This document shows, piece after piece, positions 21,516 to 41,492 of a stretch of 64,000 nucleotides of DNA. Below the pieces are notes generated by a model that worked only from the letters and a program-made list of their open reading frames with translations, had not been told where the DNA came from and did no database searches. Source of the stretch: Candidatus Coatesbacteria bacterium. Lineage in GTDB: Bacteria; JAFGND01. Made by a program: the position numbers and the translations under genes. Location of the stretch: positions 1 through 64,000 of the forward strand of contig JAFGND010000023.1 of NCBI GenBank assembly GCA_016927185.1, read 5' to 3'. How positions within the stretch are numbered: the stretch's first letter is position 1; each line of letters begins with the position of its first letter.

Positions 21516-22077
21516 TAACTTCTTGTGCAACAAATTTGAAAGTCTCGAAAACATTTACGCCATCTGAGGCAACTGACAGAAAATATGGGACAGAATACCA
21601 GTTAAGCTCTTTTTGTAAAATCTCAATATTCATTGCTCCTAGAAGATCCCTTTTATTATATTGTATAACGAAAGGAACAGATGTAGGCAGCATATTATAT
21701 TCCTTGAGGTTAGCTTCAAGATCCAACATAGAACCAATATTGGCATCCAGTCTGTCTATTTGACTATCTGCAACAAAAACTATACCATCCACATTTCTCA
21801 GTATCAGTCTTCTGCTTGCAGTGAAATAAGTTTGACCAGGAACAGTATACAAATGAAATCTTACATTATAACCATTTATTGTAGCAAGATTGAGAGGCAG
21901 GAAATCAAAAAATAAAGTTCTTTCGTGATCTGTTGCAAAGCTTATTAGTTTACCACCAATCTTTTCTCTGGTTATTTCATGGATTCTTGCTACATTAGTA
22001 GTCTTGCCTCCAAGACCAGGTCCATAATAAACAATCTTCGTATTAATCTCTTTAGAACTATAATTTATTACAGCCAT
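21487..22077 (-). CDS. MglA-like Ras-superfamily small GTPase
   Basis: 196 aa; KIVYYGPGLGGKTTN P-loop, DFLP..., YTVPGQ (switch II with Thr/Gly), NKRD G4 motif exactly as in MglA/Arf-like prokaryotic GTPases. Confidence 0.7.
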   Translation of the reverse strand: MAVINYSSKEINTKIVYYGPGLGGKTTNVARIHEITREKIGGKLISFATDHERTLFFDFLPLNLATINGYNVRFHLYTVPGQTYFTASRRLILRNVDGIVFVADSQIDRLDANIGSMLDLEANLKEYNMLPTSVPFVIQYNKRDLLGAMNIEILQKELNWYSVPYFLSVASDGVNVFETFKFVAQEVIKHLRTSQS

Positions 22078-25637: not shown

Positions 25638-26681
25638 TTGTCATGCATGAACGAACAACCAGCAAGAAAAAGAATTATAACTCCTGAGCAATTACCTGAG
25701 GACAGGAATCAACCATCATCAATCCGTCCAAGGTTCCTTGTTGAATATATAGGTCAGGAGCAGATCAAGGAAAATCTCCTTATAGCAATAAATGCTGCAA
25801 AAGCAAGAAATGAAGTTCTTGATCACCTCTTGTTTTATGGTCCCCCTGGACTTGGTAAAACGACCCTTGCAAACATAATATCCAATGAATTGAATGTGAA
25901 GTTTACAAAAACTTCAGGTCCTGCTCTTGAAAGACCTGCTGATTTAATGGGAATTCTTTCCAATCTTGAAGAAAAGCAGGTTTTGTTTATTGATGAAATA
26001 CATAGACTTCCCAAGATTGTTGAAGAATACCTTTATCCTGCTATGGAAGATTTCAAGATTGATTTTATTATAGATAAAGGTCCTTATGCAAGAACCATGG
26101 AGTTTGCATTAAAGAGATTTACATTAATTGGGGCAACAACAAGAGCTGGTAGTTTGACAAGAGCAATTAGAGAGAGATTTGGTATCTTTCATTCACTTGA
26201 TTTTTATATTCCTTCTGAATTATCAACGATTGTAATGAATACTGCCAGAATATTAAATATTCCCATAGATGAAGAAGGAGCAAATGAAATTGCGAAAAGA
26301 TCTCGTGGTACTCCCCGTGTTGCAAACAGGCTTCTTAGAAGGGTAAGAGATTATGCTGAGGTAAAGTCTAATGGATATATATCCTGTGAAATCGCAAATC
26401 TCTCTCTTGAATTGCAGGGTATAGATAATCTTGGACTGGATAATCTTGACAGGAGATTTTTGAAAACAGTAATAGATATCTATCAGGGAGGACCGGTAGG
26501 TATAGAAGCAATTGCTGCTACCTTGAATGAAGATATAGATACACTCCTGGATGTTGTCGAACCTTATCTATTGAAACTAGGCTTCGTAATAAGAACAAAA
26601 AGCGGCAGGAAAGCTACTCCTGATTCATATACACATCTTGATTTATTGAAAAAACAAGAAGAGAATCAAGAATTATTATAA
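25638..26681 (+). CDS. ruvB: Holliday junction branch migration ATPase RuvB
   Basis: 347 aa; AAA+ Walker A GPPGLGKTTLA, sensor and winged-helix C-terminus typical of RuvB. Confidence 0.95.
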   Translation: MSCMNEQPARKRIITPEQLPEDRNQPSSIRPRFLVEYIGQEQIKENLLIAINAAKARNEVLDHLLFYGPPGLGKTTLANIISNELNVKFTKTSGPALERPADLMGILSNLEEKQVLFIDEIHRLPKIVEEYLYPAMEDFKIDFIIDKGPYARTMEFALKRFTLIGATTRAGSLTRAIRERFGIFHSLDFYIPSELSTIVMNTARILNIPIDEEGANEIAKRSRGTPRVANRLLRRVRDYAEVKSNGYISCEIANLSLELQGIDNLGLDNLDRRFLKTVIDIYQGGPVGIEAIAATLNEDIDTLLDVVEPYLLKLGFVIRTKSGRKATPDSYTHLDLLKKQEENQELL

Positions 26682-29023
26682 TGAAGCGATTAGCGAAATT
26701 GATAAAAAAACCAGTTTTACTGGTATCAATTATAAGCATCTTTATCTTGTTCTTTTATACTCCATATTATCTTGGTGATTTTGAAAGAATAGCAGCAGAT
26801 ATCTCGGTTATACATTTACCATTCTACAAGCTTTTTGCAGATAATCTTTATAATGGCAATAGAATATACTGGACTCATCTTATTGGAGGTGGCTATCCCA
26901 TTTCAGGAGATGGCCATACTGGAGTTTTCAATCCTGTAACGAATGTTATTTTTTACTTTCTAAAGTGGCAAACTGGATTAAAACTTGTTTTTTTCTTGTT
27001 CTTGTTCCTTGCCTGGCTTGGAATGTATAAATTTCTTGTATCTATAGGGATCTGCAAGAGGTTATCTATACTTGGAGGAGCTGCCTGGACCTTTTCAAGC
27101 TATATGCAAAGTGTACAAATTACATTAGTTATGGTAGAATCACTAGCTATTCTTCCATGGATGCTCTTTCTGACACATGAGTTCAACAAGAAGAAACATT
27201 ACTATTTATTTATCTGGTTATTAATTGCTTCAGCAATACAATTTCTTTTTGTTCACCTACAGACAGCAGTTTATAATACATCATTCATGATTTTTTTCTT
27301 CCTGTTCTCGAGAAAAGGGGAAATAGCAAGCAAGAAAAGATGGTTATATCTTCTTATACTTCTTGCAGGAATAGCAATAATTGCATCACCTCAATTATAT
27401 TCTTCTTACAAATTAAAAATGATTTCAAGCAGAGCTTATGGATTACCACTCAAGATAGCATTATTGGGAGCACCAGGTTTGGAATTACTTTATACATTGT
27501 TTTCTCCATTTATCCTTTTTCCATATTTTCACAGCTTTCCATGGGAAATATCTCCGGAAACATCATGGATGAGATATTTGATTCAGGCTTCAGTAATATA
27601 TATAGGAATAATTCCCTGGTTTGGTTTTTTTTATATGCTTATTATAAAGAGAAACAGGATCAACAATTTTTTCCTCTTATCTGCTATTATTGCACTCTCT
27701 ATGGTTTGGGGAAGAATTAATCCATTATACTGGTTATTGCTTAAATTACCTGTTTTCGATAATTTTGGAGGTACAAGTAGATTCATTCCATATTTCCTCT
27801 TCTCTATAATAACAATTGGTTTTACTGGATGGAATGAGTATCTAACAGATGAAAAAGATAAGCAGTTTTTTCATAAAGCTGCTTTCTATTCCCTTATGAT
27901 CTATTCGGGTATTTTGCTGATACTTAAGGGTTTATCAGGGAGTAAATTACTTAGCATGATGGAATTGCCAGGATTTCTTCAAAACCAAATCTTAAGATTG
28001 AGCTTTCATTTTGATTATAAGATGATAATCTTTCCATTAATAATACTTGTTTTATTAACTATTATCCTATATCACAAGTATAAGTATAAAATCTCGAACA
28101 TAGCTTTTCTTTCTATGCTATCATTTATATTTTTTATTGATATTTCATATAATTGGCTTGGGTATACAATCTATTTTCCCTCAAAGGAATATGAAAAAGG
28201 TCCTCCTTCTGCAAGATTTTTAAACATGGATACTTCTCCTTTCAAGATGCTATCTCTAGGGACTCTGGTACATTGTATATCAAATATTTCACTCCTGCCA
28301 CCTTCATCCTCAACATTCTGGGGGATCTCTTCTGACAGACCAATGATGGTTTTAACACAGCAAAGATATAGGGATATTTATGAAAAAGCTTTCAATAAAA
28401 GAATTGAATCTCTAATTGGAGATATAAGTTTCTCTAACAAGAATATTCTTGATATTTCCAGTGTGAAATATATTGTATCTCCTAAATCTTTGTATGATAA
28501 GAATTTAAAATTGGTTTATCATCATGATCAGGTTTGGATTTATACCAACAATGTTGCTGAAGAAATCCCTTATTTTGTGAGTTCTATCAAGTATGTAAAA
28601 AATGATTTTGAAGCAATGAATGTGATTTTCAGCGAAAATTTCAAACCAAGAGAGGAAGCAATTATAATTGTTCCTTCAAGCAAACAACTTGTTGAGAATA
28701 CTGGAAAAGGCAGAATAAGAGAGTTCAGGATAATCCCAAACGGATTTGAAGCAAAAGTTGTAACTGATAGCAAATCTTTACTGGTTTTTCCATTTGTTTA
28801 TAGCAAAGATTTCGAATCTAATTATCCCTTACAACAAGTTCAATATTGCTATACTGGCATTTCTCTTCCGAAGGGAGAGCACTTTATAAAAGTACTGTAC
28901 AGAGAAGTTTTATCTGAATATCTGTTTTTAATGTCAACTATAGCTCTTTCAATCCTTGTCCTTGTTTCTTTATTCTTGAGCTATTTAATCAATTATAAAT
29001 CAAATTTCCCTAGAATAAATTGA
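26681..29023 (+). CDS. Large polytopic membrane protein (YfhO-like glycosyl-transfer/membrane family candidate)
   Basis: 780 aa; many TM segments across N-terminal 480 aa then soluble C-terminal domain and final TM; start overlaps ruvB stop. Confidence 0.55.
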   Translation: MKRLAKLIKKPVLLVSIISIFILFFYTPYYLGDFERIAADISVIHLPFYKLFADNLYNGNRIYWTHLIGGGYPISGDGHTGVFNPVTNVIFYFLKWQTGLKLVFFLFLFLAWLGMYKFLVSIGICKRLSILGGAAWTFSSYMQSVQITLVMVESLAILPWMLFLTHEFNKKKHYYLFIWLLIASAIQFLFVHLQTAVYNTSFMIFFFLFSRKGEIASKKRWLYLLILLAGIAIIASPQLYSSYKLKMISSRAYGLPLKIALLGAPGLELLYTLFSPFILFPYFHSFPWEISPETSWMRYLIQASVIYIGIIPWFGFFYMLIIKRNRINNFFLLSAIIALSMVWGRINPLYWLLLKLPVFDNFGGTSRFIPYFLFSIITIGFTGWNEYLTDEKDKQFFHKAAFYSLMIYSGILLILKGLSGSKLLSMMELPGFLQNQILRLSFHFDYKMIIFPLIILVLLTIILYHKYKYKISNIAFLSMLSFIFFIDISYNWLGYTIYFPSKEYEKGPPSARFLNMDTSPFKMLSLGTLVHCISNISLLPPSSSTFWGISSDRPMMVLTQQRYRDIYEKAFNKRIESLIGDISFSNKNILDISSVKYIVSPKSLYDKNLKLVYHHDQVWIYTNNVAEEIPYFVSSIKYVKNDFEAMNVIFSENFKPREEAIIIVPSSKQLVENTGKGRIREFRIIPNGFEAKVVTDSKSLLVFPFVYSKDFESNYPLQQVQYCYTGISLPKGEHFIKVLYREVLSEYLFLMSTIALSILVLVSLFLSYLINYKSNFPRIN

Positions 29024-30456
29024 CTCTGAAGTCCAATTCTTATGAAAGGTAAAGTTGAATTATAATCATCTTTATTATCCCTGTTCCTTATTAAATAGAC
29101 ACCACCCTCAGTAAAAACCTGCATAAAACGTGAGGGGTATAGAATAACCTTTAACGATGGCTTGCTGGTTTTCTCGACAGTTCCTGTTGGGAATGATTCA
29201 GAGTAATCATCAACGTGAAACCAGGGTTGTGTCCATTCAGCGTCTATTCTACCTTCTCCATGAGACATGTATTTGTATTTTCCCTCTATTGAGATCTTAT
29301 AGTTTATACTATATCTTATCAATCCATCAACATACCAGAAGTCATTTCCAAATGGGGATCCAATAGGCAAATTTTGATTTATATAAACATTTCTCCTGAA
29401 GTTCTGATTATATGTCCAATTATTAACTCTTACATATTCAATTCCTAAATCCAAATTATCTATAGATAAAAGATTAAACAAGTCAATACCTAATGTATAA
29501 CCAATTTCATTTGGTTCGAAATCTCCCTTTTCTTTCTTATCAATTTGAAGGTCATCAATGAATAAAGTGCCATATAATCTCATACTGTTCAAGAAAAGAT
29601 AGCTTATATCGAGGCTGAGGAAATTATTGTCATTATAATCTGAATTTTCCGCTTCATTTCTTTGTACGCTTGAGTAACAAAGAATAGGAATAAAATAATA
29701 GAATTCAATATTTCTGTTTTCTCCTCCATAAATTATCAGTTCGGAAGCAGAAATTTCCAATTTGCTATTGGGTCTATACACAATCTTATGTCCTGCCAGG
29801 TATCTATCCTCAATGGTTAATGTAGTATCTGAAACAAGCTTCGCATGAAAAGTATCAAAATAGAAATCACCAAATCTTACCTGATATCTTAATTTGTCCA
29901 TTGGATGAGCTTCTTTTGAAATGGATAGATTTCCAGTTCTTGAATTTCCCCAGGATTGCCTGTCTCTCCCTAATTGAATAATACCAAGGCTTGTATCAAT
30001 TTGAAAAATGGCTCTCTCTGCATCCATTGAAAGATTATTTCTTCTGAAAACCGGTATAGTATCGGAAGCATGCTGAAGCCTGTAGTCTAATACTGCTGAA
30101 AAGCACTTTTTTTGCATTAAAAATCCTGCACTAAGACTATTGTTTATTTCAGGAGTTGTCTTATATATCATTTCTTGATCAAACATAGGTCCGGCAAATA
30201 TTGAAAAAAAGCTTCTCTTACCTCCATGGATATATTCAGAGAATTCCTTTATTCTTTTCATTTCATAGTATTCCGTATTATTGTTTCCTGTTTCAAAGCT
30301 CATTAATGGATCACTAAATACAGGTTGATTGCCTAGATAACCTTTGTTTATTGATTTCTCCAGGTCATCTCCATGAAAATTCATAAGTCCATAAAACAAA
30401 GGAGATTCTGCAAACAAAGACAAGGCAATTGCAAGTACTAACAAAATAGATTTCAT
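28993..30456 (-). CDS. Putative outer-membrane beta-barrel protein
   Basis: 487 aa; signal peptide (MKSILLVLAIALSLFA), alternating amphipathic strands, C-terminal aromatic residue-rich end (ILGKFDL). Confidence 0.5.
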   Translation of the reverse strand: MKSILLVLAIALSLFAESPLFYGLMNFHGDDLEKSINKGYLGNQPVFSDPLMSFETGNNNTEYYEMKRIKEFSEYIHGGKRSFFSIFAGPMFDQEMIYKTTPEINNSLSAGFLMQKKCFSAVLDYRLQHASDTIPVFRRNNLSMDAERAIFQIDTSLGIIQLGRDRQSWGNSRTGNLSISKEAHPMDKLRYQVRFGDFYFDTFHAKLVSDTTLTIEDRYLAGHKIVYRPNSKLEISASELIIYGGENRNIEFYYFIPILCYSSVQRNEAENSDYNDNNFLSLDISYLFLNSMRLYGTLFIDDLQIDKKEKGDFEPNEIGYTLGIDLFNLLSIDNLDLGIEYVRVNNWTYNQNFRRNVYINQNLPIGSPFGNDFWYVDGLIRYSINYKISIEGKYKYMSHGEGRIDAEWTQPWFHVDDYSESFPTGTVEKTSKPSLKVILYPSRFMQVFTEGGVYLIRNRDNKDDYNSTLPFIRIGLQSQFILGKFDL

Positions 30457-30469
30457 AATATCTCCTCAA

Positions 30470-32650
30470 TTACTTTATTTTTCTTATCTTAAGAGATCCC
30501 CAGATATAACCACTAGGATATCCCCATTTTGTCTTTGCATTGTTTTCAGACCAGAAATTTGGATTTTCAGTAATAATTACTTTGTCCAAAGAATTGATCC
30601 TCCCTGTCCATGTTGCATTTTTTTTATTTGCTTTGAGTACTATAACAGGATTAGGTAATGTATTTTTGAAAAAAGGATAATCTTTTCCAATGAAAACATA
30701 AAGATCTCTTTCACCTTCTTTCAGATTTTCATACCCTCTATTATAATTCCATGGTATATATTTGAAGTAGTTTTCATCAGCTCCCTTTACTTTGGATAAA
30801 GTATTGGGATAATCATAGTTTAACGTTATTTCATATTCACCTTCAGGAAATATGAACTGGCAAAATTGGGAGCAAGTATCATACTTCAAAGAGCTTTGAA
30901 AAGGGATTTTGCTTTCAGGCTGAATTAAAGATAATCTATTAGTATCTTTTCTTATCAGTGATAGACCAGCAATAGATAAAGGAGCTAACCATTCACCAAA
31001 GTCAATCCCGCTCGTTCCGATAAGATGTCCATTTTTTTTGTTAGGATTATGCATAAGCCCATAATAGTGCCATGGAAGAGCAAGATCAGGATAGATACCA
31101 GTACTGAAGCAGTAGTAAACAAGATGTGTTACAGGAAAATCACGGTTTTCATTATTCCAATCATTAACAATATGTATATACTCATTCATTAATCTTGCTG
31201 TCTTAAGTTCATTTAATATTGGCGTCCTTGCTATAATTGACTTGGAGATGTTTTCATTTTTTGAAAAATTACTTAATAATTTTGTTTTAACCTTAACGAA
31301 ATCACCATACCAATCAGGTATCTTATACTTGCCTGAGAGAAAGGTTCGCCAAAGATCATTTATATATTCGGCATAAAGATCAATAATATCTCTGTTACTA
31401 TTCATATCATAAGATAGTATTTTTCCCCATTCAGGGAATACTTTATTATCTCTTCTATATTCATCTACTACGTCTAGTCTAGCTATTTGTGGGTATCCAA
31501 ATTCAGTTATTGCAAGGTTTTGAGGCATTCCAAATTTTTTATATTTTCTAAGAAAATCCCTGCACCATTCAATTTCAGACCTTAAAGTCATAGGAACACC
31601 AGGATTTCTTCCTGATCCGAAATTATACTGTATTGCCTCGTAAGGACTTCTATATTTAAATCTGTATAAATGAACAGAAACTGAATTGAAGAAGATTTGA
31701 GAGATACCAATTTCATCATTCTTGTAGTTTTTTCTTATTTTTCTTACTTCTTCACAAAACATATCAGATAAAGCATATGAATAATCAGAACCTGCTTGAT
31801 TATTAATATCACTATTCCAGTCTTGCCATTTTATAAGGCTTTGTCTTGGGCCAGAGCATTCCAGATTTCCCCAGAAAACTTCAGAGGGACAGTCAAGTTC
31901 GTCAAGTTTTTTAAGATTTCCCTTCCACTTATCGTACTGAACCAACGCTCTTTTCAAGCCTCTCATGGCAGCTCTTGTCATTGCCAGTTTTATATAGAGT
32001 GGAGCAGCTCCTACTCCTATTTGCCCGTTTCCCTTTTTTACTCCTGTAGCACATTCAAAAATAAACCAATACTCATTTCCAATTATAAACTTCACTTTTT
32101 TAAAGCAATTTTCAGGATTATCTTTAAATATCTCCATAAATGATTTGGCTACTGAATAGCAAAAATACTCATAAGTCTGTTGATTTCTTATAGAATCAAA
32201 TGGAATTCTTTCGTTAATAAAAATGTAAGAACTATCAGAAGGTGCCCATCTATATATATGACCATTTTTGGGATATTCATAGAAACCAATACCCATTCTG
32301 GATTTAACAGATGATATTTCTGGCATTGCTGTGGATAAAACAATGAATACAGTATTTTCGTTATTCCTTCTTATCCAGAAAGCAGCAGTTTTCTCAAGTT
32401 CATCTTTAAGTTTCTGGGGGTTGAAACCGCTTGCAGCATAATAATCTGGGAAAGAAAGAAAATATTGAGAATTTCTTATTCCCATTTTGATTGCAACTTT
32501 GGCAGCTGCTTCATTGTATATTCGTGATTTGTATCTGCAGAGATACATTGCTCCTAATTGAAAACTCAATTCCTGCTCAGCATGAATGGAATTTGCAAAA
32601 GCAAGTAATAGAATGATAATCATTTTTTGAATAGTTTTTTTATGAGCCAT
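30470..32650 (-). CDS. Secreted hypothetical protein (possible glycoside hydrolase-like)
   Basis: 726 aa; signal peptide (MIIILLLAFANSIHA); no confident family. Confidence 0.5.
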   Translation of the reverse strand: MAHKKTIQKMIIILLLAFANSIHAEQELSFQLGAMYLCRYKSRIYNEAAAKVAIKMGIRNSQYFLSFPDYYAASGFNPQKLKDELEKTAAFWIRRNNENTVFIVLSTAMPEISSVKSRMGIGFYEYPKNGHIYRWAPSDSSYIFINERIPFDSIRNQQTYEYFCYSVAKSFMEIFKDNPENCFKKVKFIIGNEYWFIFECATGVKKGNGQIGVGAAPLYIKLAMTRAAMRGLKRALVQYDKWKGNLKKLDELDCPSEVFWGNLECSGPRQSLIKWQDWNSDINNQAGSDYSYALSDMFCEEVRKIRKNYKNDEIGISQIFFNSVSVHLYRFKYRSPYEAIQYNFGSGRNPGVPMTLRSEIEWCRDFLRKYKKFGMPQNLAITEFGYPQIARLDVVDEYRRDNKVFPEWGKILSYDMNSNRDIIDLYAEYINDLWRTFLSGKYKIPDWYGDFVKVKTKLLSNFSKNENISKSIIARTPILNELKTARLMNEYIHIVNDWNNENRDFPVTHLVYYCFSTGIYPDLALPWHYYGLMHNPNKKNGHLIGTSGIDFGEWLAPLSIAGLSLIRKDTNRLSLIQPESKIPFQSSLKYDTCSQFCQFIFPEGEYEITLNYDYPNTLSKVKGADENYFKYIPWNYNRGYENLKEGERDLYVFIGKDYPFFKNTLPNPVIVLKANKKNATWTGRINSLDKVIITENPNFWSENNAKTKWGYPSGYIWGSLKIRKIK

Positions 32651-33918
32651 AATAACTCCATAATTTTCAATATCAGATTAACAAATACAGAAAGAGGGAA
32701 CGGATTATAAAATTTCGGCTCCAATAAGTCATCATCTTTGTCAATTATCTCTTTTTCGATGGATATCTTTTGAAGCTCAGTATTTGGATAAATTCTCATA
32801 GTAACAATAAATAATCCATGAAGAGCTAGTAGCTTCCCCAAATGTAGTTTCGCTTTTATTATGAAAGATATTGTTTTTACAAGGCTGAATATGGTTTCCC
32901 CTGGAGCATTAAGCATGAAGTCATAACCAACACGAAGGTTTGCCTTTTTTGCCAGCATGTAAGTCTTTTTTAAGTCTTTTGAAGTAATTTCCTTTCTCAG
33001 ATTATTAAGTATTTTATTATCAGCACTATCAGGGCTGAAAATAGCCTGTTTGCAACCGGATTCTTTCATTAAATTGAAAAAATCCATATCAAGATTTTTT
33101 TCATAAAACCATGCTGTCCATTTAATACCAATCTCATTTTCTATAATGCTTTTCAATAATGATTTAGTATATTCATACGGAATATTGAATATCTGATCAG
33201 CAAAAAAAACATTCTTAATTCCTATCTTTTCCATATCTTTAAGCTCATTAACAATATCCTCAACAGGTCTTGTAAAAATATTGCTTCCTAAAAGGTGTTT
33301 ATCACTGCAATGAATACAGTTAAGAATACAACCTCTTCTGGTTTGTATTCCATATGCATTTTCAAATCTTGCATAAAGCTCTACTGGAATAATAGTTCTA
33401 TCAGGGGTAACAAGCTTATTCTTTTCATCGTCAGTCTGATTAAAAGAGTATTTTATTGTCTGATTGAACCTATAATAAACTCCTGCAACTTTTTGTGGTT
33501 TATACAGATTCTGAAGCAATTTTGGAAATGTGACTTCAGCGCTTCCAAAAAGACCGTAATCTATTTCATTATAAATCCTCATTAGAGGTTCAGCAAACAA
33601 TGAAAATCCCATTCCACCTGCAATAAGCACTGAATCAGGTTGTACTCTTTTTGCTATTCTTATCAGGTTATGATGCTCATCAACTATATTTGCATGCTTC
33701 CTTATTGTTGCAACTTTAATGTTTCTTATTCCAAAGCCTATCACATCATATTTATACTTATCAAGCATATTTAAGTATTCATCTTCTGTTGAGACATTTA
33801 TATCTAATCCATATATTTCATGGTTTTCTTTTAGTACTGTTTTAAGACAAGCCAATCCAAGCGGATAAATAGGTGGTTCTTCAGGTGAAGTGAAAGATTG
33901 AACTAAAAGTATTTTCAT
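32620..33918 (-). CDS. B12-binding radical SAM enzyme (class B)
   Basis: 432 aa; N-terminal cobalamin-binding Rossmann region then CxxxCxxC (RRGCILNCIHC). Confidence 0.8.
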   Translation of the reverse strand: MKILLVQSFTSPEEPPIYPLGLACLKTVLKENHEIYGLDINVSTEDEYLNMLDKYKYDVIGFGIRNIKVATIRKHANIVDEHHNLIRIAKRVQPDSVLIAGGMGFSLFAEPLMRIYNEIDYGLFGSAEVTFPKLLQNLYKPQKVAGVYYRFNQTIKYSFNQTDDEKNKLVTPDRTIIPVELYARFENAYGIQTRRGCILNCIHCSDKHLLGSNIFTRPVEDIVNELKDMEKIGIKNVFFADQIFNIPYEYTKSLLKSIIENEIGIKWTAWFYEKNLDMDFFNLMKESGCKQAIFSPDSADNKILNNLRKEITSKDLKKTYMLAKKANLRVGYDFMLNAPGETIFSLVKTISFIIKAKLHLGKLLALHGLFIVTMRIYPNTELQKISIEKEIIDKDDDLLEPKFYNPFPLSVFVNLILKIMELLWLIKKLFKK

Positions 33919-35474
33919 TACCAGCCAACACCAATTCTCTGTTTCAGATGAAACAAAATTCCGAATAGCCTTCCTGAAAAAACTGCTTTCAAACCTTTTT
34001 CCAAGAATCTTAATCTTTCTAACCAGAAGTAAAGAGAATTATAGAATTTATTGAATTTATCCTTGTGTAAATATTTAACATACCTGGGAGTAGCTAGTTT
34101 CCTTATAATTCCTTTTGGAAGGAGACTATAACATGCTAGATAAATAAGAAAATTAAGGTAATCTCCTTTTGGAATACCAAATGGATGCCTGTTTATCTCA
34201 AGTTCTTCATCTTTGATCAATCCTTCTTTCTTTGCTCTTTCATAAAGCGGAGTTCCATGAAAGAAGGTCAATGAAGAAAGGCAAGTATCATATGGTTGGG
34301 GAAGCTTAAGTATGGTCTCAAGTGTAGTCAAAAGAGCTTCTTCTGTCTCCCATGGATTATCCAGTATTATATGGTATCTTGGAGCCAGCATTTTCTCTTT
34401 TCTTGTATTCAGTATCTGTATTGATTTTCTTATCCTGTCTGTTCCTGTTTGCCTTTCATAACAAGCTTCGGTTTCAGAACTGGTCGTTTGTATGCCCATT
34501 TCCAGATACATCAGACCTGCATCAATAAGCAAATCTATTTTTTGTTCAGTTAAAGTGGCAGGACTTGTTTGAGCATAGATTGGCAGATTGATTTCCTCTT
34601 TGTATTTCTGTACGAGTTCTTCAAGATATTTAAACGGTGTTGCAAAAAATGTATCATCAAAAAACTGTATACCGCTATACCATGGATATTTATCAATTGC
34701 CAGTTTCATTTCCTTTATTATATTATCAACAGATCGTCGCCTTGAATGCATCTGGTTTTTATATAGTTTGTGATAGAGATTATTTATGCAATATGAACAA
34801 GAGTGAGGACATCCTCTTGTTGTCATAAGTCTGTAACAAATCCTTCTTTTACCATCAGTATGTGAAATACGAGGAGCATGGTATTTATATGTTTCTTCAG
34901 TCAATGGGACAATCTCTTTCTTGTGTTCCATATATATGAAGTGGCCTTCAGTGTCTATGTCACAATATGGAAGATTATCTACATCCTGAAGCAAGGGGGC
35001 TAGATTATTATACTTGATTAATCCGTCTTTTTTATATGCAAGATTAGGTACATTTTCAAAAGGTAGCTGCCTTGCAAGAGCTAGAATTGCTTCTTCTCCT
35101 TCTCCAATGCAAACTGCATCAACTTCATTCAGGGATGATTCAATATTAACCATTGTATGGACTCCGCCCCAGATTATCTTTCCTCCAAATCTGGATCTTA
35201 ATCCCCTTGTAAGCTGTAAGCCTCTGTCATAATATAATGACATGAAAGAAAAACCAGCTATTTCGCTATCCTGTGATAATTCAATCAGTTGACTAATCAC
35301 TTTTTCAGGATATCTATAAACATAATTAACTGTATGCCTGTAATTATTTATACCGCCTGGGAAAAAAACTATTCTTGTTTTGAAGCCATGATGCTTAAGG
35401 TAAGCACTTAATGCTCTGATACCAAATGCACTTATATCAAAAGGAGTAGGAGTAACAAGAAGAATAGGTTTCAT
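33918..35474 (-). CDS. B12-binding radical SAM enzyme (class B), second copy
   Basis: 518 aa; N-terminal B12-binding-like domain, TTRGCPHSCSYC radical SAM cluster motif; stop overlaps start of downstream rSAM. Confidence 0.8.
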   Translation of the reverse strand: MKPILLVTPTPFDISAFGIRALSAYLKHHGFKTRIVFFPGGINNYRHTVNYVYRYPEKVISQLIELSQDSEIAGFSFMSLYYDRGLQLTRGLRSRFGGKIIWGGVHTMVNIESSLNEVDAVCIGEGEEAILALARQLPFENVPNLAYKKDGLIKYNNLAPLLQDVDNLPYCDIDTEGHFIYMEHKKEIVPLTEETYKYHAPRISHTDGKRRICYRLMTTRGCPHSCSYCINNLYHKLYKNQMHSRRRSVDNIIKEMKLAIDKYPWYSGIQFFDDTFFATPFKYLEELVQKYKEEINLPIYAQTSPATLTEQKIDLLIDAGLMYLEMGIQTTSSETEACYERQTGTDRIRKSIQILNTRKEKMLAPRYHIILDNPWETEEALLTTLETILKLPQPYDTCLSSLTFFHGTPLYERAKKEGLIKDEELEINRHPFGIPKGDYLNFLIYLACYSLLPKGIIRKLATPRYVKYLHKDKFNKFYNSLYFWLERLRFLEKGLKAVFSGRLFGILFHLKQRIGVGW

Positions 35475-35481
35475 TACAGTT

Positions 35482-36234
35482 TTAATTTATTGCCTTCAAT
35501 CCTTCTTTTATTCTAATCAAATTACCATTTTCTTTTATAATGCTTATAACATGTTTTGCCAGACACCAGGTTAGAATGGTATTATCCAGAGCATTCTTTA
35601 TCTTTGTTTCATTTGGATCCGAAATGAAATAAAAGAATGGGAGGCTTAAAAAGAAATCTTCCTTATATTGTGTTTGATATAAATATAGCGGGAAAAGTAT
35701 TTCATCACCTTCTTGCGGTATTTTATACTCGCCAAGCGAATAATAAAATTCAGGTGAGTGTATCCTGACAACTACTCTTGGTTTTCCTTTAGTTATATTA
35801 TATACGAAGTCTTTTCCCCAAAATATCTCATTTATCTCTATTTCCAGCCTTGTTTTTTTTGTCCAGAGATAATAGTGTGCAGGATCAGTATTCATAAGAT
35901 CAGGGATCGGAGTATAGGACACAGAAATGACCTTAGCTCGACATAAGACATTGGCAGCAGCAATATTTATCCAGAATCTCTCGGGACAATTCCTGAATCC
36001 ATAATGCCAATTAGGAAAGCATTCCAGTTTTATCTTCCATGAATTCAACATGATTGATCTATATACAGGGAGGAAACTATCCTTTGCAGATTCAAACACC
36101 TTGGGATCTAATTTAAAAGGCAATTCAGTATTTTTATAAAAACTGCAATCCCATGTATTATAATTCAGGAATTTGTCTTTTTCAGGAAATTTCGAAAACG
36201 AAACAATAATAAGTAAAAATCCCCAACAAAACAT
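35482..36234 (-). CDS. Hypothetical protein, first gene of rSAM operon
   Basis: 250 aa; N-terminal hydrophobic signal-like segment. Confidence 0.5.
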   Translation of the reverse strand: MFCWGFLLIIVSFSKFPEKDKFLNYNTWDCSFYKNTELPFKLDPKVFESAKDSFLPVYRSIMLNSWKIKLECFPNWHYGFRNCPERFWINIAAANVLCRAKVISVSYTPIPDLMNTDPAHYYLWTKKTRLEIEINEIFWGKDFVYNITKGKPRVVVRIHSPEFYYSLGEYKIPQEGDEILFPLYLYQTQYKEDFFLSLPFFYFISDPNETKIKNALDNTILTWCLAKHVISIIKENGNLIRIKEGLKAIN

Positions 36235-36401: not shown

Positions 36402-36773
36402 TTATCTCTTTGACACTGAAAAAGTCCCGCTGGCTGTACCATCATCATCTGGATAATACCATTTACCATTAACATTATCCTGTTCAAATGCTCCTTCAAT
36501 TCTGCCTTGATGATCCAGATCAATATATATCTTGAATTTACCTTGTTCATCAATCTTGCCGTACCAGCCAGAAAACTCTTTTTCAACTTCTTCCTCTGAA
36601 AGTTTTACCCTTATCTTTATATAACCATTATTGATATTATTGTCTTTAACATTGAAATAAATGGGAAGAGATTGATTTGTCTGACCTGAATAATCGCCAT
36701 AAGCAGTATTATCTCCGGGATCTGTACAGGATAAAATGAAGAAACAAAAGCAAAATATAATAAGTGCTTTCAT
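36402..36773 (-). CDS. Small lipoprotein
   Basis: 123 aa; lipobox FFILSC at end of signal peptide. Confidence 0.55.
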   Translation of the reverse strand: MKALIIFCFCFFILSCTDPGDNTAYGDYSGQTNQSLPIYFNVKDNNINNGYIKIRVKLSEEEVEKEFSGWYGKIDEQGKFKIYIDLDHQGRIEGAFEQDNVNGKWYYPDDDGTASGTFSVSKR

Positions 36774-36792
36774 GTCTATATTTTACGGACAA

Positions 36793-37512
36793 TCACAAAA
36801 GATTTCTGTGAGGTGAAAGTATTTCTGCTATTTGCTTTCCCATAAGTATATATTGCTTGAGTTCTTCCTTATCCTCTATCAAACCAGTTTTTTGAAAAGT
36901 TGCATCATGACCTTCCAGGGTAAAATCTATGTTGTTATATTTGAAACTGCACATGGCAATAAAAACCTGCTTGAAATGGCTATTGACAACTTGTATGGCT
37001 GAATCAGGATTATTGCATTTTATAATGTATTGCCCGTCAAAGTCAGGATCACCTATTTCTATGTCTTGCATACCAAGGGATTTTCCTATCTTTGAAAAAA
37101 AACCTTCTGGATAGATCCTGAGTTTGTATTCATAAGGTTTTTCGAATTCAATGAAAATATCAGTATAGAAGATTGGGTTTTTACCTCCTGAAGAATGATA
37201 AGTACAACGGAGTTTTGAACCTTTCAAAGGCAATTCCAAAACAGGAAATCCTGTATTCCTGGGAATATTATTCGGATTGAGTAATTCCTTTGATTTTCCT
37301 TGAAAAATAAAGGAGGTTAAGTCTATAAATTTCAAAGGTTTTTCATATATAGCTCCAATCTCAAGAGCAATTTCCTCAAATACTTTATGTCTACGTTCTG
37401 ATCTTTTTTTTGCTGAAATTATGGAATAACTAAGAGAGATTATAAATATTGAGAGGAACAAAATGAACATGATAACTGGAAACATATTTGACAGTAGATT
37501 ACCGAAATTCAT
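36793..37512 (-). CDS. Membrane-anchored hypothetical protein (paralog A)
   Basis: 239 aa; single N-terminal TM; shares DxDFDxxYxIKxxNPDxA motif with adjacent 216-aa ORF. Confidence 0.55.
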   Translation of the reverse strand: MNFGNLLSNMFPVIMFILFLSIFIISLSYSIISAKKRSERRHKVFEEIALEIGAIYEKPLKFIDLTSFIFQGKSKELLNPNNIPRNTGFPVLELPLKGSKLRCTYHSSGGKNPIFYTDIFIEFEKPYEYKLRIYPEGFFSKIGKSLGMQDIEIGDPDFDGQYIIKCNNPDSAIQVVNSHFKQVFIAMCSFKYNNIDFTLEGHDATFQKTGLIEDKEELKQYILMGKQIAEILSPHRNLL

Positions 37513-37521
37513 ATATACTCC

Positions 37522-38172
37522 TTATAGCTGTTTACGTAAGTTATTACTAAAAGTTTCTCCCAGCTCTTTTGAATTCACAAGAAAGAGTTTCAAATTATCT
37601 TTGTTACAGATTGATATATCTCTGTCAATATTAATTTCAGCTTCATTTATGATTATTGTCATGAAATCCTTCTTGTCTCCATGAATACCTCTGATGCAAT
37701 TCTTTATATTATTATTCAAAATTTTTCTAGCCTTATCCGGATTATCAGTTTTTATTTTATATTCTTTATCAAAATCACTATCATTAGTTTCTATTTCTAT
37801 CAAATGGACTTCTTTTGGGAAAGGAGAAGCCATATTCAAAATCTCATATAAATCCTCAGGAATGATTAAAATCTTGCAAAATAATGAGTTATAGAGGTTC
37901 AGTATTAGTTTGTTTTCGTTCTTCTTATGAATGAAGACTCCTTCTCCTCCTTTGAATCTGAATTCTATTTGCAGATGTCTTTCTTGATCATTTCCTGAAA
38001 TTTTAATTCCTTCCATAAAAAAAGGTTCAATGTCTTTTATGAAATCAGTGCTTATGCTTCTATTCCTTCTATAAGCTATTCTTGAAAGAAAATAAATAAC
38101 AATGATGATTAATGCCATTTTGAAGTAAATTGAATTTGTAATAATCATGATATTATTAATAATATTATTCAT
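37522..38172 (-). CDS. Membrane-anchored hypothetical protein (paralog B)
   Basis: 216 aa; single N-terminal TM; conserved motif NDSDFDKEYKIKTDNPDKA matching paralog A. Confidence 0.55.
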   Translation of the reverse strand: MNNIINNIMIITNSIYFKMALIIIVIYFLSRIAYRRNRSISTDFIKDIEPFFMEGIKISGNDQERHLQIEFRFKGGEGVFIHKKNENKLILNLYNSLFCKILIIPEDLYEILNMASPFPKEVHLIEIETNDSDFDKEYKIKTDNPDKARKILNNNIKNCIRGIHGDKKDFMTIIINEAEINIDRDISICNKDNLKLFLVNSKELGETFSNNLRKQL

Positions 38173-38211: not shown

Positions 38212-39480
38212 TTAATAATCAAGAAGAAAATTCAGTATATATTCACCGACATTCTGAATAGATATGCATTCTGGCATTAATTGATTTGTTATACGGAATG
38301 CATTGTCATATGTATGGCAGCCAGTTATATGAGTACTATTAAAAACTTCCTTAGTATTAAGCCTTGCTTTTAAATCGTAACCATGCTTCGGAAGAATTAC
38401 CATGTCTGGTGCAATATCCAGAAACTCGCCTTTATATATATCTTCTTTCCTGAATACTTTTTCTATTACTGCTTCATTATTATATTTCAATGTAAAGAGT
38501 TTGCTCTCAAGATCATCAAGGTATTTTTTACAGTCTTCTTCGGAAATTTCAAGACCATTTTCAAATATCTCTCTTTTATTCAAATATATCCTTCCTGGAT
38601 CCAGAGACATGAATAATGATTTTCCGCTAATATCTTCTATGCTTGCAGGATGGCTTTTATTCAGTACCATTAAGTTATTCTCGATAAGCCAGTTATTTAT
38701 ATATATTTCCTGCTTTAATCCAGTGAAACCATGATCTGAAAGCATAATGAACGGATTTTCATCAAAAAAATCATCAACCAATCTTCCAAACAGTTTGTCT
38801 ATCTTGTTGAAATATTCCATAACAAATGAGTGATATATATTACTTTTATCTGTAATTGCATGATGCATGAAATGCAGAAGCCTATCAGTTTCAGTAATAA
38901 CTCCTATCCATAAATCGTACTTGTCTTTCAAAGTCAACCTGAAACTTTTTTCCCTTATTTCGAGCATCTCAATTAAATCTTTTACAAGGAAATCCAAATC
39001 TTTTGCTTTAGTCAAATCAACATCTATTCTATATTTCATGTCCTTTAAATCCCTGTAGAAGGAAAGCGGATATACTGATTTTTCCAGTTCTAATGCCACA
39101 AAACCCGAAACCATAAGTCCATTTATCGGGGTAGCAGGATATGTACTTGGTAAATTAATGACTGCTGAAGTCATATTCTTCTCAGCTATTATTTCCCATA
39201 AAGTTTTCTTTTTCCTGTCTTTACTGTTGGGAAAAGTCAAGCTATATGATGGTCTGTTAAAATCCATGAATCCAAATATGCCATGCTCAGCAGGATTTGA
39301 AGCAGTCATGAAAGATGTCCATGCAACTGACGAAATAGGCGGGTAAGAGCTCAGAAGAGGGACAAAGCTGGATTCAGATTGATCTATATAACTTTTGAAA
39401 TTTGGCATTATCCCGGCATCAATATATTCGCTTATCAGACTGAATGGAGTCCCGTCTAATCCCAGTACATAAAAAGCCAT
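38212..39480 (-). CDS. Cytoplasmic alkaline-phosphatase-superfamily enzyme (type I phosphodiesterase/nucleotide pyrophosphatase-like)
   Basis: 422 aa; no signal peptide; LGLDGT, PPISSVAWTSF...HGIFGF, LSDHGF motifs; stop overlaps cysC start. Confidence 0.75.
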   Translation of the reverse strand: MAFYVLGLDGTPFSLISEYIDAGIMPNFKSYIDQSESSFVPLLSSYPPISSVAWTSFMTASNPAEHGIFGFMDFNRPSYSLTFPNSKDRKKKTLWEIIAEKNMTSAVINLPSTYPATPINGLMVSGFVALELEKSVYPLSFYRDLKDMKYRIDVDLTKAKDLDFLVKDLIEMLEIREKSFRLTLKDKYDLWIGVITETDRLLHFMHHAITDKSNIYHSFVMEYFNKIDKLFGRLVDDFFDENPFIMLSDHGFTGLKQEIYINNWLIENNLMVLNKSHPASIEDISGKSLFMSLDPGRIYLNKREIFENGLEISEEDCKKYLDDLESKLFTLKYNNEAVIEKVFRKEDIYKGEFLDIAPDMVILPKHGYDLKARLNTKEVFNSTHITGCHTYDNAFRITNQLMPECISIQNVGEYILNFLLDY

Positions 39481-40079
39481 TAAATATATCCCAGATCTTC
39501 AAGTCTTTTCTTGATTTTTGCTTCTTCATCAGGGGAATAAACATTCTTTATGAAAGTGCGATTTGTTATGAAACCTTTTTCTTGAAGATAATTCAGTATT
39601 GTTTCCACGCTTTCCTCTATAGATGTATTTTTTAACTCAATTTCAGGATTTAATGGTGGTTCATAAGGATCATCCACTCCAGTGAAGTCTTTTATTTCAC
39701 CTTTTCTTGCTTTTGCATACATTCCCTTTACATCCCTTTGTTCACATATTTCAATTGGGGTATTCATATATACCTCTATGAAATTCGTACAGGATTGTCT
39801 GGCATCAAAACGCGCTTTCCTGTAAGGTGAAATAAAAGAGACAATAACAGCAACTTCATTTCTGGATAAAAGCTTTGCTACAAAAGTAACTCTATCGATA
39901 TTTTTATCCCTGTCTTCTTTTGAAAATCCAAGATCCTTGCATAAGGATTTTCTGACAACATCCCCATCAAGTCTCTCCACCTTCAATCCTAGATCTGTCA
40001 ACTCCTTTGCTAAAGCATCTGCTATAGTTGTTTTTCCAGAACATGGTAAACCGGTAAACCAAATACAAAATCCATTCAT
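39480..40079 (-). CDS. cysC: Adenylylsulfate (APS) kinase
   Basis: 199 aa; FWFTGLPCSGKTT P-loop, LDGDVVR, classic CysC. Confidence 0.9.
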   Translation of the reverse strand: MNGFCIWFTGLPCSGKTTIADALAKELTDLGLKVERLDGDVVRKSLCKDLGFSKEDRDKNIDRVTFVAKLLSRNEVAVIVSFISPYRKARFDARQSCTNFIEVYMNTPIEICEQRDVKGMYAKARKGEIKDFTGVDDPYEPPLNPEIELKNTSIEESVETILNYLQEKGFITNRTFIKNVYSPDEEAKIKKRLEDLGYI

Positions 40080-40082
40080 TTA

Positions 40083-41492
40083 TCACTCCTCGTAAAAACT
40101 ACTTTTCCAAAATGATGTTCCCAAATAGTGATTTGGTTTTTTTATCCCGAAAGCCTCAAGGACAGTTGGGGCAATATGATAAATTGCTTGATGATCCAGC
40201 CAGTTTTCTCCGATTCCAGGATGATACAAGAGGAAAAATCCATCTTGGGCATGATTAGCATCATCAGGCCCCGTATCATTTTCATGAGTGTATAGTCTGG
40301 AGGTCCCAACAGTACCTTGACTTCGCCATGAAAGATCACCTAAGTATAGAATAATATCAGGTGGAATTCCATTAGTTTCATGATATATCTCATCAGGTAA
40401 ATATGCCTTGTTGTTCATGCAGATTCCGTTGTCATCAAGAATTGCTTCAAGTTTCTTTTTCAGTTCTTCAAGGAAATCCTTTTTCTGGTTTTCTTTTATT
40501 ATCCCTCTGGGTTCTCTGCCAGCAATGTTTAAAAAAATCCTTGAATAGTATCCTCCCTCTCCATAACAATATGTATTATCCCAGTCAATAATATCGTGAC
40601 TAATTTTTAGTGCTTTCTTTGGGGTTTCTATCAGTTTCAAATAACCTTCTTGCATTAGCCATTCATTGATATAGAAACCGCCTTTCATTGCTTTTGCTCC
40701 ATGATCAGATACTATGAAAATTGCGATTTCTTCATTATCTATATAAGGATTCAAAAGCTCCTCAAGGTTTTTGTCAAGAGAAATGTAGTACTTTTCTACT
40801 ACATTTTTCAGGATGCTATCAGGCTTATATAATGGATGCTCTTCATCGAAATATTTCCAGAAACCATGATGTAGTCTGTCAGGTCCCATAAAAACTGCCA
40901 TGAAGAAATCCCATTCTTTGCTTTCAAGAAGAAATTTTGCTGCCTTGAAGCGAGCTTTTGTCATTTTGTAAATCTCTTTTATCAACCATTCCTTATCTTG
41001 TGTTCGGAAATTATTGACATCTATCTGATAATCAGGTACTGCTAGTAGAAGTTCCTTTTTAAGCTCTTTTGGATAAGTAAAATCTGAATTGAGGTCTGGA
41101 GTAAGAAAACACCCTACAAGATTGCCCTTTATTGGTTTAGGTGGATATGTTTGAGGAACATTTAGTATTGTAGATTTCAATCCAGCTTCTCCCAAAATAT
41201 CCCACAATAAAGGCTTCTTAATAAACGTGCTGTTAGCAATCACTTGATCATTATAGTCATAACTTCCTCTGTTTCTGAAGCCATAAATACCTAGCTGACC
41301 TGGATCCTGAGAAGTCATCATAGTCATCCATGCTGGTACAGTGATCGCTGGAATGGTACTCCTGAGTGTTCCATAACGAGAACTCTGTTTGAGTTTGTTG
41401 AAGAAATCAAGTTGATTAACGAATCTGCTATTCACAAGCTGAGGCGCAAGACAATCAAGTCCTATAATAATGAATTTTTTAATCTGTGGCAT
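40083..41492 (-). CDS. Cytoplasmic alkaline-phosphatase-superfamily enzyme (type I phosphodiesterase/nucleotide pyrophosphatase-like), paralog
   Basis: 469 aa; IIGLDCLAP, ITVPAWMTMMTS...GIYGF, VSDHGA motifs. Confidence 0.75.
   Translation of the reverse strand: MPQIKKFIIIGLDCLAPQLVNSRFVNQLDFFNKLKQSSRYGTLRSTIPAITVPAWMTMMTSQDPGQLGIYGFRNRGSYDYNDQVIANSTFIKKPLLWDILGEAGLKSTILNVPQTYPPKPIKGNLVGCFLTPDLNSDFTYPKELKKELLLAVPDYQIDVNNFRTQDKEWLIKEIYKMTKARFKAAKFLLESKEWDFFMAVFMGPDRLHHGFWKYFDEEHPLYKPDSILKNVVEKYYISLDKNLEELLNPYIDNEEIAIFIVSDHGAKAMKGGFYINEWLMQEGYLKLIETPKKALKISHDIIDWDNTYCYGEGGYYSRIFLNIAGREPRGIIKENQKKDFLEELKKKLEAILDDNGICMNNKAYLPDEIYHETNGIPPDIILYLGDLSWRSQGTVGTSRLYTHENDTGPDDANHAQDGFFLLYHPGIGENWLDHQAIYHIAPTVLEAFGIKKPNHYLGTSFWKSSFYEE

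Follow-up and report, generated by a model that had tools for sequence, protein, structure and literature searches.

What do two consecutive radical S-adenosylmethionine (SAM) enzymes with a cobalamin (B12)-binding domain do amid a set of envelope genes? This question is raised by a five-gene unit on the minus strand (28993-36234) of contig JAFGND010000023.1 from Candidatus Coatesbacteria bacterium (assembly GCA_016927185.1), of which we analysed positions 1 to 64,000 (64 kb; hereafter, the window). To our knowledge, few enzymes are as hard to link to a function as such class-B radical SAM enzymes, and nearly all the examples that have been characterised belong to pathways for antibiotics, cofactors or pigments. 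We suggest that the pair would carry out a cytoplasmic tailoring step on the lipid-linked precursor of a surface glycoconjugate, a reading to which we give a probability of roughly 0.5. Most likely, what the pair decorates is a surface glycoconjugate, as opposed to a hopanoid or an ether lipid, and comparison with related loci indicates that it is a minimal copy of a conserved tandem, in which a gene of the 518-residue enzyme's family is followed by a gene of the 432-residue type. The unit and the gene that converges on it are composed as follows.

35482-36234, minus strand: orphan protein of 250 aa, first gene of the unit, with a short hydrophobic N-terminus
33918-35474, minus strand: enzyme A, class-B radical SAM enzyme of 518 aa with the motif CPHSCSYC and Pfam Radical_SAM and B12-binding domains
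32620-33918, minus strand: enzyme B, class-B radical SAM enzyme of 432 aa with the motif CILNCIHC and Pfam Radical_SAM and B12-binding domains
30470-32650, minus strand: secreted orphan protein of 726 aa with a signal peptide
28993-30456, minus strand: predicted Wzi-family outer-membrane protein of 487 aa (Pfam Caps_assemb_Wzi), last gene of the unit
26681-29023, plus strand: YfhO-like polytopic membrane protein of 780 aa, convergent with the unit and homologous to a YfhO protein of a related locus (L109)

The five open reading frames (ORFs) are tightly packed, and our ORF and domain scans bear out the first-pass annotation, which had placed five minus-strand ORFs, two of them with motifs of B12-dependent radical SAM enzymes, at exactly these coordinates. 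It had also described the gene boundaries as overlapping, which holds at two junctions, between the genes for enzymes A and B (1 nt) and between those for enzyme B and the 726-aa protein (31 nt), but not at the other two, where spacers of 7 nt (250-aa gene to enzyme A) and 13 nt (726-aa to 487-aa gene) are found. The 3' ends of the 487-aa gene and the convergent 780-aa gene overlap by 31 nt. With strong domain matches in a window of ~32% G+C and ratios of nonsynonymous to synonymous substitution rates (dN/dS) of 0.05-0.14 relative to a second genome, the five ORFs are, judged by their sequences, far beyond chance. The unit comes last in a ~21-kb run of envelope genes, 18 in number and all on the minus strand (49941 down to 28993), in which the biggest gaps measure 167 nt and 94 nt. 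The 167-nt gap is AT-rich and lies upstream of the 250-aa gene, the start codon of which is backed by an AAGGAG ribosome-binding site 7 nt before the ATG. A scan for promoters and terminators gave no enrichment over shuffled sequences, and an Rfam search of the window matched no RNA family and, therefore, no cobalamin riboswitch.

Both enzymes match the Pfam models Radical_SAM (62.9 bits, E 5e-17, for enzyme A and 63.3 bits, E 4e-17, for enzyme B; cut-off 29.5) and B12-binding (33.1 and 42.4 bits, respectively; gathering score 32.1). The cluster motif is found at residue 222 in enzyme A and at residue 197 in enzyme B, and its three Cys residues are invariant in alignments A1, A4 and A5. These matches place both proteins in the class-B radical SAM superfamily, which is defined by the B12-binding domain, and within this known superfamily they form new subfamilies. 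Neither has a signal peptide, and enzyme A is therefore taken to be cytoplasmic; enzyme B ends in a hydrophobic or amphipathic helix (residues 407-427). An AlphaFold2 model of enzyme B, built on 76 homologues, reached a predicted local distance difference test (pLDDT) score of 93.5. In a Foldseek search with this model, the top match was TsrM (template modelling (TM) score 0.78), followed by AprD4, OxsB, MgmA, CysS and TokK, all of them class-B radical SAM enzymes and all with ≤19% identity; the model superposes on TsrM, OxsB, TokK and CysS across ~420-480 alignment columns.

The enzymes share with the class-B methylases GenK/GenD1, Fom3, TokK/ThnK, CysS and TsrM the N-terminal B12-binding Rossmann domain and the radical SAM barrel with a CxxxCxxC motif, and the predicted fold of enzyme B superposes on the methylases among its structural neighbours. 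TokK, CysS and GenK/GenD1 act in series or iteratively. By contrast, identity to any solved member is at most 19%, and the setting in the window is a surface-polymer locus and not an antibiotic cluster. Moreover, the non-methylases AprD4 and OxsB match the fold of enzyme B almost equally well. Because AprD4 has the class-B fold and is reported to have no requirement for cobalamin, the fold alone is no proof of cobalamin use. By analogy with the structurally closest enzymes, methylation is most likely the reaction performed by each enzyme, and radical chemistry without methylation, as in AprD4 or OxsB, is the less likely alternative.

The evidence that carries our reading comes from sister loci, which were found by look-ups of encoding contigs and a scan of GTDB genomes and each of which holds one 432-type orthologue with 38-46% identity to enzyme B. 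All ten (L002, L003 (= L011), L005, L008, L009, L010, L107, L108, L109 and L110) are surface-polymer-type clusters, and those with a label stem from metagenome-assembled genomes (MAGs) of Desulfobacteraceae, Chitinophagales, Nitrospirota and Nitrospinia. In eight of the ten (L002, L003, L005, L008, L010, L107, L108 and L109), a 518-family gene lies immediately upstream of the 432-type gene on the same strand, which is the arrangement seen in the window (33918-35474 followed by 32620-33918). The exceptions are L009, which is without a 518-family gene, and L110, which has only radical SAM fragments at that position. For the two radical SAM genes, the synteny that the first-pass annotation had put forward as a check is, thus, present. 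Enzyme A is 34-46% identical to its sister-locus paralogues, and in a neighbour-joining tree its family falls into three subclades, the 521-type, which holds the window enzyme, the 494-type and the 516-type. Since the sister loci carry two to seven class-B radical SAM enzymes each, the pair in the window represents the minimal set. The largest array among the loci examined consists of seven consecutive paralogues (L109, 1-11323) and is followed by genes for a GDSL lipase, a YfhO protein, two more radical SAM proteins, of which one has a SPASM domain, and a member of the GT9 heptosyltransferase family.

The tandem keeps recurrent company. LpxL-like acyltransferase genes (PF03279) are present in nine of the ten sister loci and PF01663 phosphodiesterase-family genes in six, the latter homologous to two proteins of the window, Pde1 and Pde2 (E down to 1e-57). 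The remaining company includes Wzz/tyrosine kinase, CpsB, Wzx and Wzy_C proteins, secreted proteins with weak similarity to glycoside hydrolases (GH39, GH42 or GH_cc-like) and GT-C-like or YfhO proteins; an AMP-binding ligase and a DUF362 protein are found in two loci. For all of these partner families, NCBIfam scores stay under the cut-offs. The first-pass annotation had not included the recurrent PF01663 and LpxL-like partners; the former lie in the window just outside the coordinates of the five-gene unit, and the latter were not found in the window. Searches of the literature returned no description of this locus arrangement.

More distant 432-type homologues (≤36% identity) have no tandem and are surrounded by unrelated genes of the housekeeping kind (Rho, glutamate racemase, M1 peptidase, MtnA-like proteins and PAS kinases). 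In seven MAG loci labelled "Rickettsiales" (L015-L020 and L022; ~11350-12430, in L019 2154-3239), such a homologue is directly followed by a gene of the IF-2B/MtnA family; this neighbour, from the methylthioribose-1-phosphate isomerase family, may be related to the salvage of radical SAM by-products. When metagenomes were scanned with the 518-family alignment, 80 loci were retrieved, every one distant (≤36% identity) and none with the tandem, the search patterns being too generic.

Could the pair belong to a radical SAM family with a known function? Membership was judged by NCBIfam scores relative to curated cut-offs together with gene context, and both enzymes fell short of the cut-off of every curated family (BzaD, TIGR04072, HpnJ/P/R and BchE). 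Accordingly, the placement proposed in the first-pass annotation yields no firm grouping with a known class-B family. The top match of enzyme B is BzaD (TIGR04385; 226.5 bits, E 7e-67, over the full length), against which enzyme A scores 21.6 bits, and this match could be taken to mean that enzyme B is a BzaD-like methylase of the benzimidazole that serves as lower ligand of B12. The score is, however, half of the 450-bit cut-off, no bza, cob or cbi genes are present among the Pfam-scanned genes of the window, and all close orthologues of enzyme B reside in surface-polymer clusters; we regard a role in cofactor synthesis as exceedingly improbable.

BzaD and TIGR04072 (lipid biosynthesis B12-binding/radical SAM protein; cut-off 360) are the curated families nearest to enzyme B, with full-length alignments in both cases, but enzyme B scores only about half of their cut-offs (198.3 bits for TIGR04072), and neither a bza/cob nor a FabF/acyl carrier protein-type lipid neighbourhood was found in the window. 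For enzyme A, TIGR04072 is the best curated match (86.7 bits) and HpnJ the second best (78.9 bits, with 68.5 bits for enzyme B; cut-off 577.6); the orthologue of enzyme A in L003 scores 112 bits against HpnJ. These matches, the several LpxL-type acyltransferases of the sister loci, the AMP-binding ligase in two of them and the C-terminal hydrophobic helix of enzyme B would all fit a function in membrane-lipid tailoring, in which the pair would add C-methyl groups to acyl chains, hopanoids or ether lipids, or alter them in another way, and the envelope proteins would transport or hold the modified lipid. However, the scores lie well under the cut-offs of 360 and 577.6, and HpnR (cut-off 650) gives 54.5 bits for enzyme B and 18.3 bits for enzyme A. 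Among the scanned genes of the 64 kb, there are no squalene-hopene cyclase (shc), hpn, isoprenoid, ether-lipid or fatty-acid synthesis genes and no LpxL-like gene, and in the sister loci it is Wzz/Wzx/Wzy polymer machinery, not lipid synthesis, that forms the framework. We, therefore, consider lipid tailoring unlikely, though with a real share of the probability. It overlaps with our reading if the product is an acylated glycolipid. The substrate of HpnJ is a lipid-linked amino sugar and, thus, conceptually close to the substrate class proposed here. The first-pass annotation had spoken of an uncharacterised lipid or glycan tailoring pathway, by analogy with hopanoid or ether-lipid C-methylation. 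As a general description this is fair, given that the nearest relatives lie in Wzz/Wzx/Wzy clusters with acyltransferases; the lipid analogy does not hold up, with hopanoid-family scores (HpnJ and HpnR, HpnP having no separate listing) far under the cut-offs and the corresponding pathway genes not found in the 64 kb.

BchE (cut-off 481) gives 32.5 and 50.5 bits for the two enzymes, and membership in the BzaD, hopanoid radical SAM or BchE families is ruled out by curated cut-offs and gene context. Like HpnR and BchE, the families of PhpK, GenK-like proteins and enzymes acting on ribosomally synthesised and post-translationally modified peptides (RiPPs) score far lower than the top curated matches. 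A RiPP-like function, in which the pair would methylate or crosslink a peptide or protein such as the 250-aa product or the C-terminal LGY tails described below, is brought to mind by the arrays of up to seven class-B paralogues (L109), which recall arrays of RiPP C-methyltransferases, by the conserved tail on neighbouring enzymes and by weak matches to TIGR03975 (41-58 bits) and ApyD (24-76 bits). These scores are far under the cut-offs of 282 and 750, respectively, there is no recognisable precursor peptide, leader protease or RiPP exporter, the context is of the polysaccharide type throughout and no sister locus has a counterpart of the 250-aa protein. We find this explanation very improbable.

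The next question is whether the other proteins of the unit take part in the same process. The 250-aa protein matched only itself in a word-index search of 5.8 billion proteins and has no Pfam or NCBIfam match even at E≤5. Its N-terminus, previously called signal-like, does contain a hydrophobic stretch of 12 residues but has no charged n-region. The 726-aa protein has the typical Sec signal peptide (MAHKKTIQKMIIILLLAFANSIHA/EQ) expected from its earlier description as secreted. It too matched only itself, whether the 5.8 billion proteins were searched by word index or 1.84 billion representatives were scanned in full with phmmer; it has no sequence match in the PDB and no Pfam match at E≤5, and its single-sequence AlphaFold2 model (pLDDT 32.7) was unusable and left out of the fold search. 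The motifs GNEYW (residue 191) and TEFG (residue 382) raise the suspicion of a glycosidase of clan GH-A, which is at most a lead, as a comparison by hhalign with GH39/GH42-like proteins from the sister loci detected no relation (probability 0.5%). A homologue is encoded on a Coatesbacteria-like contig of 2.7 kb from another sample (L111), which has the order 518-type, 432-type and 726-aa homologue with 92% (last 258 aa), 81% and 77% (first 237 aa) identity, respectively. At a dS of ~0.85, dN/dS is 0.14 for the 726-aa gene and 0.12 and 0.05 for the two radical SAM genes. Because L111 keeps the gene order, the 31-nt overlap and a low dN/dS, these comparisons identify the 726-aa ORF as a real gene under purifying selection.

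The 487-aa protein belongs to the Wzi family according to Pfam (Caps_assemb_Wzi, PF14052; 95 bits at a cut-off of 30.1, E 6.1e-27, profile positions 49-343 of 392) and has a signal peptide, in agreement with its earlier prediction as an outer-membrane protein; phmmer gave no direct match to any PDB chain, solved Wzi included. The locus resembles that for group 1 (K30-type) capsule assembly in E. coli in that it ends with a Wzi-family gene and has a Wzy_C-type gene on the same string. By contrast, Wza, Wzb and Wzc were not found in the window, and the 487-aa protein is without a direct match to solved Wzi.

The convergent 780-aa protein is polytopic, with ~10 hydrophobic segments and a large C-terminal portion. 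Its designation as YfhO-like receives no support from Pfam, where no model matches even at E≤5, YfhO included, but does receive indirect support from homology to the PF09586-positive YfhO protein of L109 (BLASTP, 24% identity over 775 aa, E 9e-24), the gene of which sits one gene downstream of the 432-type gene beside the radical SAM array. YfhO is a family of GT-C-type extracytoplasmic glycosyltransferases, and GT-C enzymes of the YfhO/GtlA type decorate teichoic acids from lipid-linked sugars. Beyond the missing Pfam match, the window protein differs from these enzymes in its host. Because this is a diderm, as LolA and the outer-membrane protein of the Wzi type indicate, one would not expect teichoic acid to be the acceptor. 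The 780-aa protein is probably part of the same system as the radical SAM unit.

For the 250-aa, 726-aa and Wzi-like proteins, no counterpart was detected in any of the ten sister loci. Conservation of the five genes as a unit, which the first-pass annotation had implied, is thus not supported. The radical SAM tandem could, then, be self-contained and the other three genes, two of which encode orphans, merely co-transcribed with it while doing unrelated jobs in the envelope. This is at odds with the overlaps of 1 nt and 31 nt and the spacers of 7 nt and 13 nt, which imply co-translation as a unit, with the conservation of the overlap between the 432-aa and 726-aa genes in a relative at a dS of ~0.85, and with the presence of different secreted GH-like and GT-C-like proteins at equivalent positions of sister loci, which suggests analogues and not homologues. 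We hold such mere co-location to be rather improbable.

Further evidence for surface-polymer biosynthesis comes from the genes upstream of the unit. From the 250-aa gene, these encode, in order, a 123-aa lipoprotein, two single-pass proteins, Pde1, APS kinase, Pde2, ATP sulfurylase, a tetratricopeptide repeat protein (42659-43642), LolA, a peptidase of family M28, a member of the YdjM family, a Wzy_C protein and a 537-aa lipoprotein. Those that bear on the argument, together with a third phosphodiesterase-family gene, are listed here; APS is adenosine 5'-phosphosulfate and NPP nucleotide pyrophosphatase/phosphodiesterase.

36402-38172, minus strand: three small envelope proteins (the 123-aa lipoprotein and two single-pass proteins), with lipobox ILSC and N-terminal transmembrane segments
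38212-39480, minus strand: Pde1, NPP-like enzyme of the alkaline phosphatase superfamily, 422 aa (Pfam Phosphodiest, E 5.9e-35)
39480-40079, minus strand: APS kinase (CysC), 199 aa (Pfam APS_kinase, E 3.4e-63, residues 3-149)
40083-41492, minus strand: Pde2, NPP-like enzyme, 469 aa (Pfam Phosphodiest, E 5.4e-47), predicted to be cytoplasmic
41500-42657, minus strand: ATP sulfurylase (Sat; Pfam ATP-sulfurylase, E 3.7e-89, and PUA_2, E 5e-44)
46810-48300, minus strand: Wzy_C/O-antigen-ligase-like polytopic membrane protein with 11 hydrophobic segments (Pfam Wzy_C, 47.1 bits, cut-off 31.7)
48328-49941, minus strand: predicted lipoprotein of 537 aa with lipobox LFSC, which heads the 18-gene string directly before the Wzy_C gene
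3782-5770, minus strand: third PF01663 phosphodiesterase-family protein, 662 aa, away from the radical SAM unit

Whether the three small envelope proteins are part of the system is uncertain; the two single-pass proteins score 21.6 and 24.5 bits against DUF3137, under the cut-off of 26.1. The Wzy_C protein is weakly similar to that of L009. The 537-aa lipoprotein has no Pfam or NCBIfam match, and hhalign revealed no relation of this protein or the 780-aa protein to the GT-C-like proteins of L003 and L008. Of the components of a Wzx/Wzy locus, the window shows Wzy_C only; Wzx and Bac_transf were not found, although the sister loci between them have all three components. In the 60 proteins of the window that were examined, neither a Pfam scan nor tblastn detected a sulfotransferase, Wza, Wzc, Wzx or an initiating transferase. 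The scanned genes contain no Poly_export or Wzz/GNVR domain, and tblastn with sister-locus Wzz had no match. Likewise, six sister-locus acyltransferases of the LpxL type (PF03279) gave a best E of 0.3 in tblastn against the whole window, where Pfam has no match to this family either.

Sat and CysC together make 3'-phosphoadenosine 5'-phosphosulfate (PAPS), and their genes are interleaved with those for Pde1 and Pde2. Pde1 is 25-28% identical to the phosphodiesterase-family proteins of L003, L005, L008 and L009 (E 1e-33 to 1e-41), and Pde2 26-29% identical to those of the sister loci (E down to 1e-57). In an alignment of Pde1, Pde2 and nine sister proteins, the NPP-type metal ligands are kept (D13, D205/H209, D263/H264 and H414 in Pde2 numbering), as is the column of the Ser/Thr nucleophile, which suggests that the PF01663 enzymes of the window and the sister loci are probably active. 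Pde1 and Pde2 have no signal peptide, hence our reading that they are cytoplasmic. Among proteins of solved structure, ENPP1 and phosphonoacetate hydrolase come closest, with profile E values of ~1e-10 over partial stretches. Thus, these proteins share with the NPP/PhnA branch of the alkaline phosphatase superfamily the two-metal ligand set, the nucleophile column and the Pfam family PF01663. They differ from it in that they are very distant, fall in no NCBIfam family and are cytoplasmic, in that the sister-locus members have a C-terminal ...RLxxLGYL tail and in that the window members are interleaved with Sat and CysC.

All nine sister-locus PF01663 proteins end in ...EE..I..RL..LGY(L/M/T). 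The genes concerned are located as follows.

L002, 4824-6233: LGY-tail PF01663 protein
L003, 4268-5956: LGY-tail PF01663 protein
L003, 13811-15502: LGY-tail PF01663 protein
L005, 2826-4496: LGY-tail PF01663 protein
L005, 12257-13996: LGY-tail PF01663 protein
L008, 8159-9889: LGY-tail PF01663 protein
L009, 6444-8093: LGY-tail PF01663 protein
L108, 1369-3009: LGY-tail PF01663 protein
L108, 3035-4720: LGY-tail PF01663 protein

Pde1 and Pde2 are without this tail; it is the CysC between them that carries it, on an extension past the kinase domain (...EEAKIKKRLEDLGYI). The pattern L..LGY[LIVMT] has 19 matches in 845,000 ORF residues, where a rough chance expectation is ~5 matches anywhere, and 15 of the 19 lie within 20 residues of the C-terminus. 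Because CysC and all sister-locus PF01663 proteins share the RLxxLGY(L/I) tail, the genes for PAPS synthesis appear tied to the NPP-like family, a hint in the sequences that the two functions are coupled. The tail could be a docking or oligomerisation helix; we found no literature on the motif. Written more broadly as ...EE..[IV]..RL..LGY[LIMT], it also occurs on a PF00884 sulfatase (L025, 13696-16080) and on a protein with a PAPS-reductase domain (L101, 4220-4978). In the window, an ORF of 63 aa (3580-3771, minus strand), 10 nt after the 662-aa gene and with its own AAAGGAG ribosome-binding site, ends in ...KEKLQGLGYL; by eye, it looks like a ribbon-helix-helix protein.

Taken together, two PF01663 genes, a Wzy_C gene, a Wzi-family gene and a YfhO homologue lie on or against the same string as the tandem, and we classify the locus as an uncharacterised variant of a surface-polymer biosynthesis locus. 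In the model that we propose, both radical SAM enzymes would act in the cytoplasm, at the inner face of the membrane, and their substrate would be a sugar or acyl-sugar precursor that is lipid-linked or nucleotide-activated. Action at this face fits the cytoplasmic location of the radical SAM and NPP-like enzymes and the hydrophobic helix at the end of the 432-type enzyme. Each enzyme would perform one radical modification, for which cobalamin-mediated methyl transfer to an unactivated carbon is the best candidate. With PAPS supplied by the adjacent Sat and CysC, the NPP-like enzymes would install phospho- or sulfo-ester groups or rework existing ones. Export of the tailored unit and its assembly beyond the cytoplasm would then fall to the Wzy_C-like and YfhO-like membrane proteins, and the product would be handled or retained at the surface by the 726-aa secreted protein, which is lineage-specific, and the Wzi-like protein of the outer membrane.

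Several points weigh against this model. As the structural matches of the modelled enzyme B to AprD4 and OxsB illustrate, proteins with the class-B fold are not always methylases or users of cobalamin. The window's version of the module differs from that in the sister loci, and with LpxL-like, Wzx, Wzz, Wza and initiating transferase proteins not found in the window, a complete polymer pathway is not visible. The 167-nt gap and three small genes part the radical SAM unit from the phosphodiesterase/Sat/CysC block, and the third phosphodiesterase-family gene implies that this family is generally expanded in the genome. In sequence comparisons, the 250-aa, 726-aa and Wzi-like proteins were not found with the tandem outside the close relative L111, and it is operon structure only that links them to the radical SAM chemistry. 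Finally, the distant 432-type homologues have unrelated surroundings of the housekeeping kind.

Elsewhere in the window, two gene groups stand apart from the radical SAM unit. Adjacent genes for a ThiF-family (E1-like) protein and a prokaryotic JAB-domain protein (51710-52994, minus strand) are unrelated to it; ThiF-JAB pairing is typical of ubiquitin-like or sulfur-carrier systems. A gene for a small Arf/Ras-like GTPase (21487-22077, minus strand; Pfam Arf, E 3e-8) adjoins genes for pyruvate:ferredoxin oxidoreductase.

A bolder version of the surface-glycoconjugate reading, which we offer as speculation and consider improbable, is that the module of radical SAM tandem or array, tail-bearing NPP-like enzyme and LpxL-type acyltransferase makes an undescribed class of surface glycoconjugate that is C-alkylated and bears phospho- or sulfo-esters. 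In Coatesbacteria, PAPS synthesis would be docked to the module, and an enzyme of the NPP fold would perform sulfuryl transfer in place of a classical sulfotransferase, of which none is detectable in the window. If this is true, ester groups would be installed by transferases of the alkaline phosphatase fold, and the interleaved order Sat-Pde-CysC-Pde together with the tail would reflect physical docking.

The value of the window itself is the more modest one of a reduced, lineage-specific version of the system in an uncultured organism. Beyond it, a conserved tandem, with arrays of up to seven paralogues, is found in Wzx/Wzy-type surface-polymer loci of several (at least five) phyla. This distribution points to a class of radical, probably C-methylating decorations on surface glycoconjugates, of which we found no description in the literature searched. 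The set of orthologues, the recurrent partner enzymes and the C-terminal tail motif provide handles for finding a culturable host and, with it, the chemistry.

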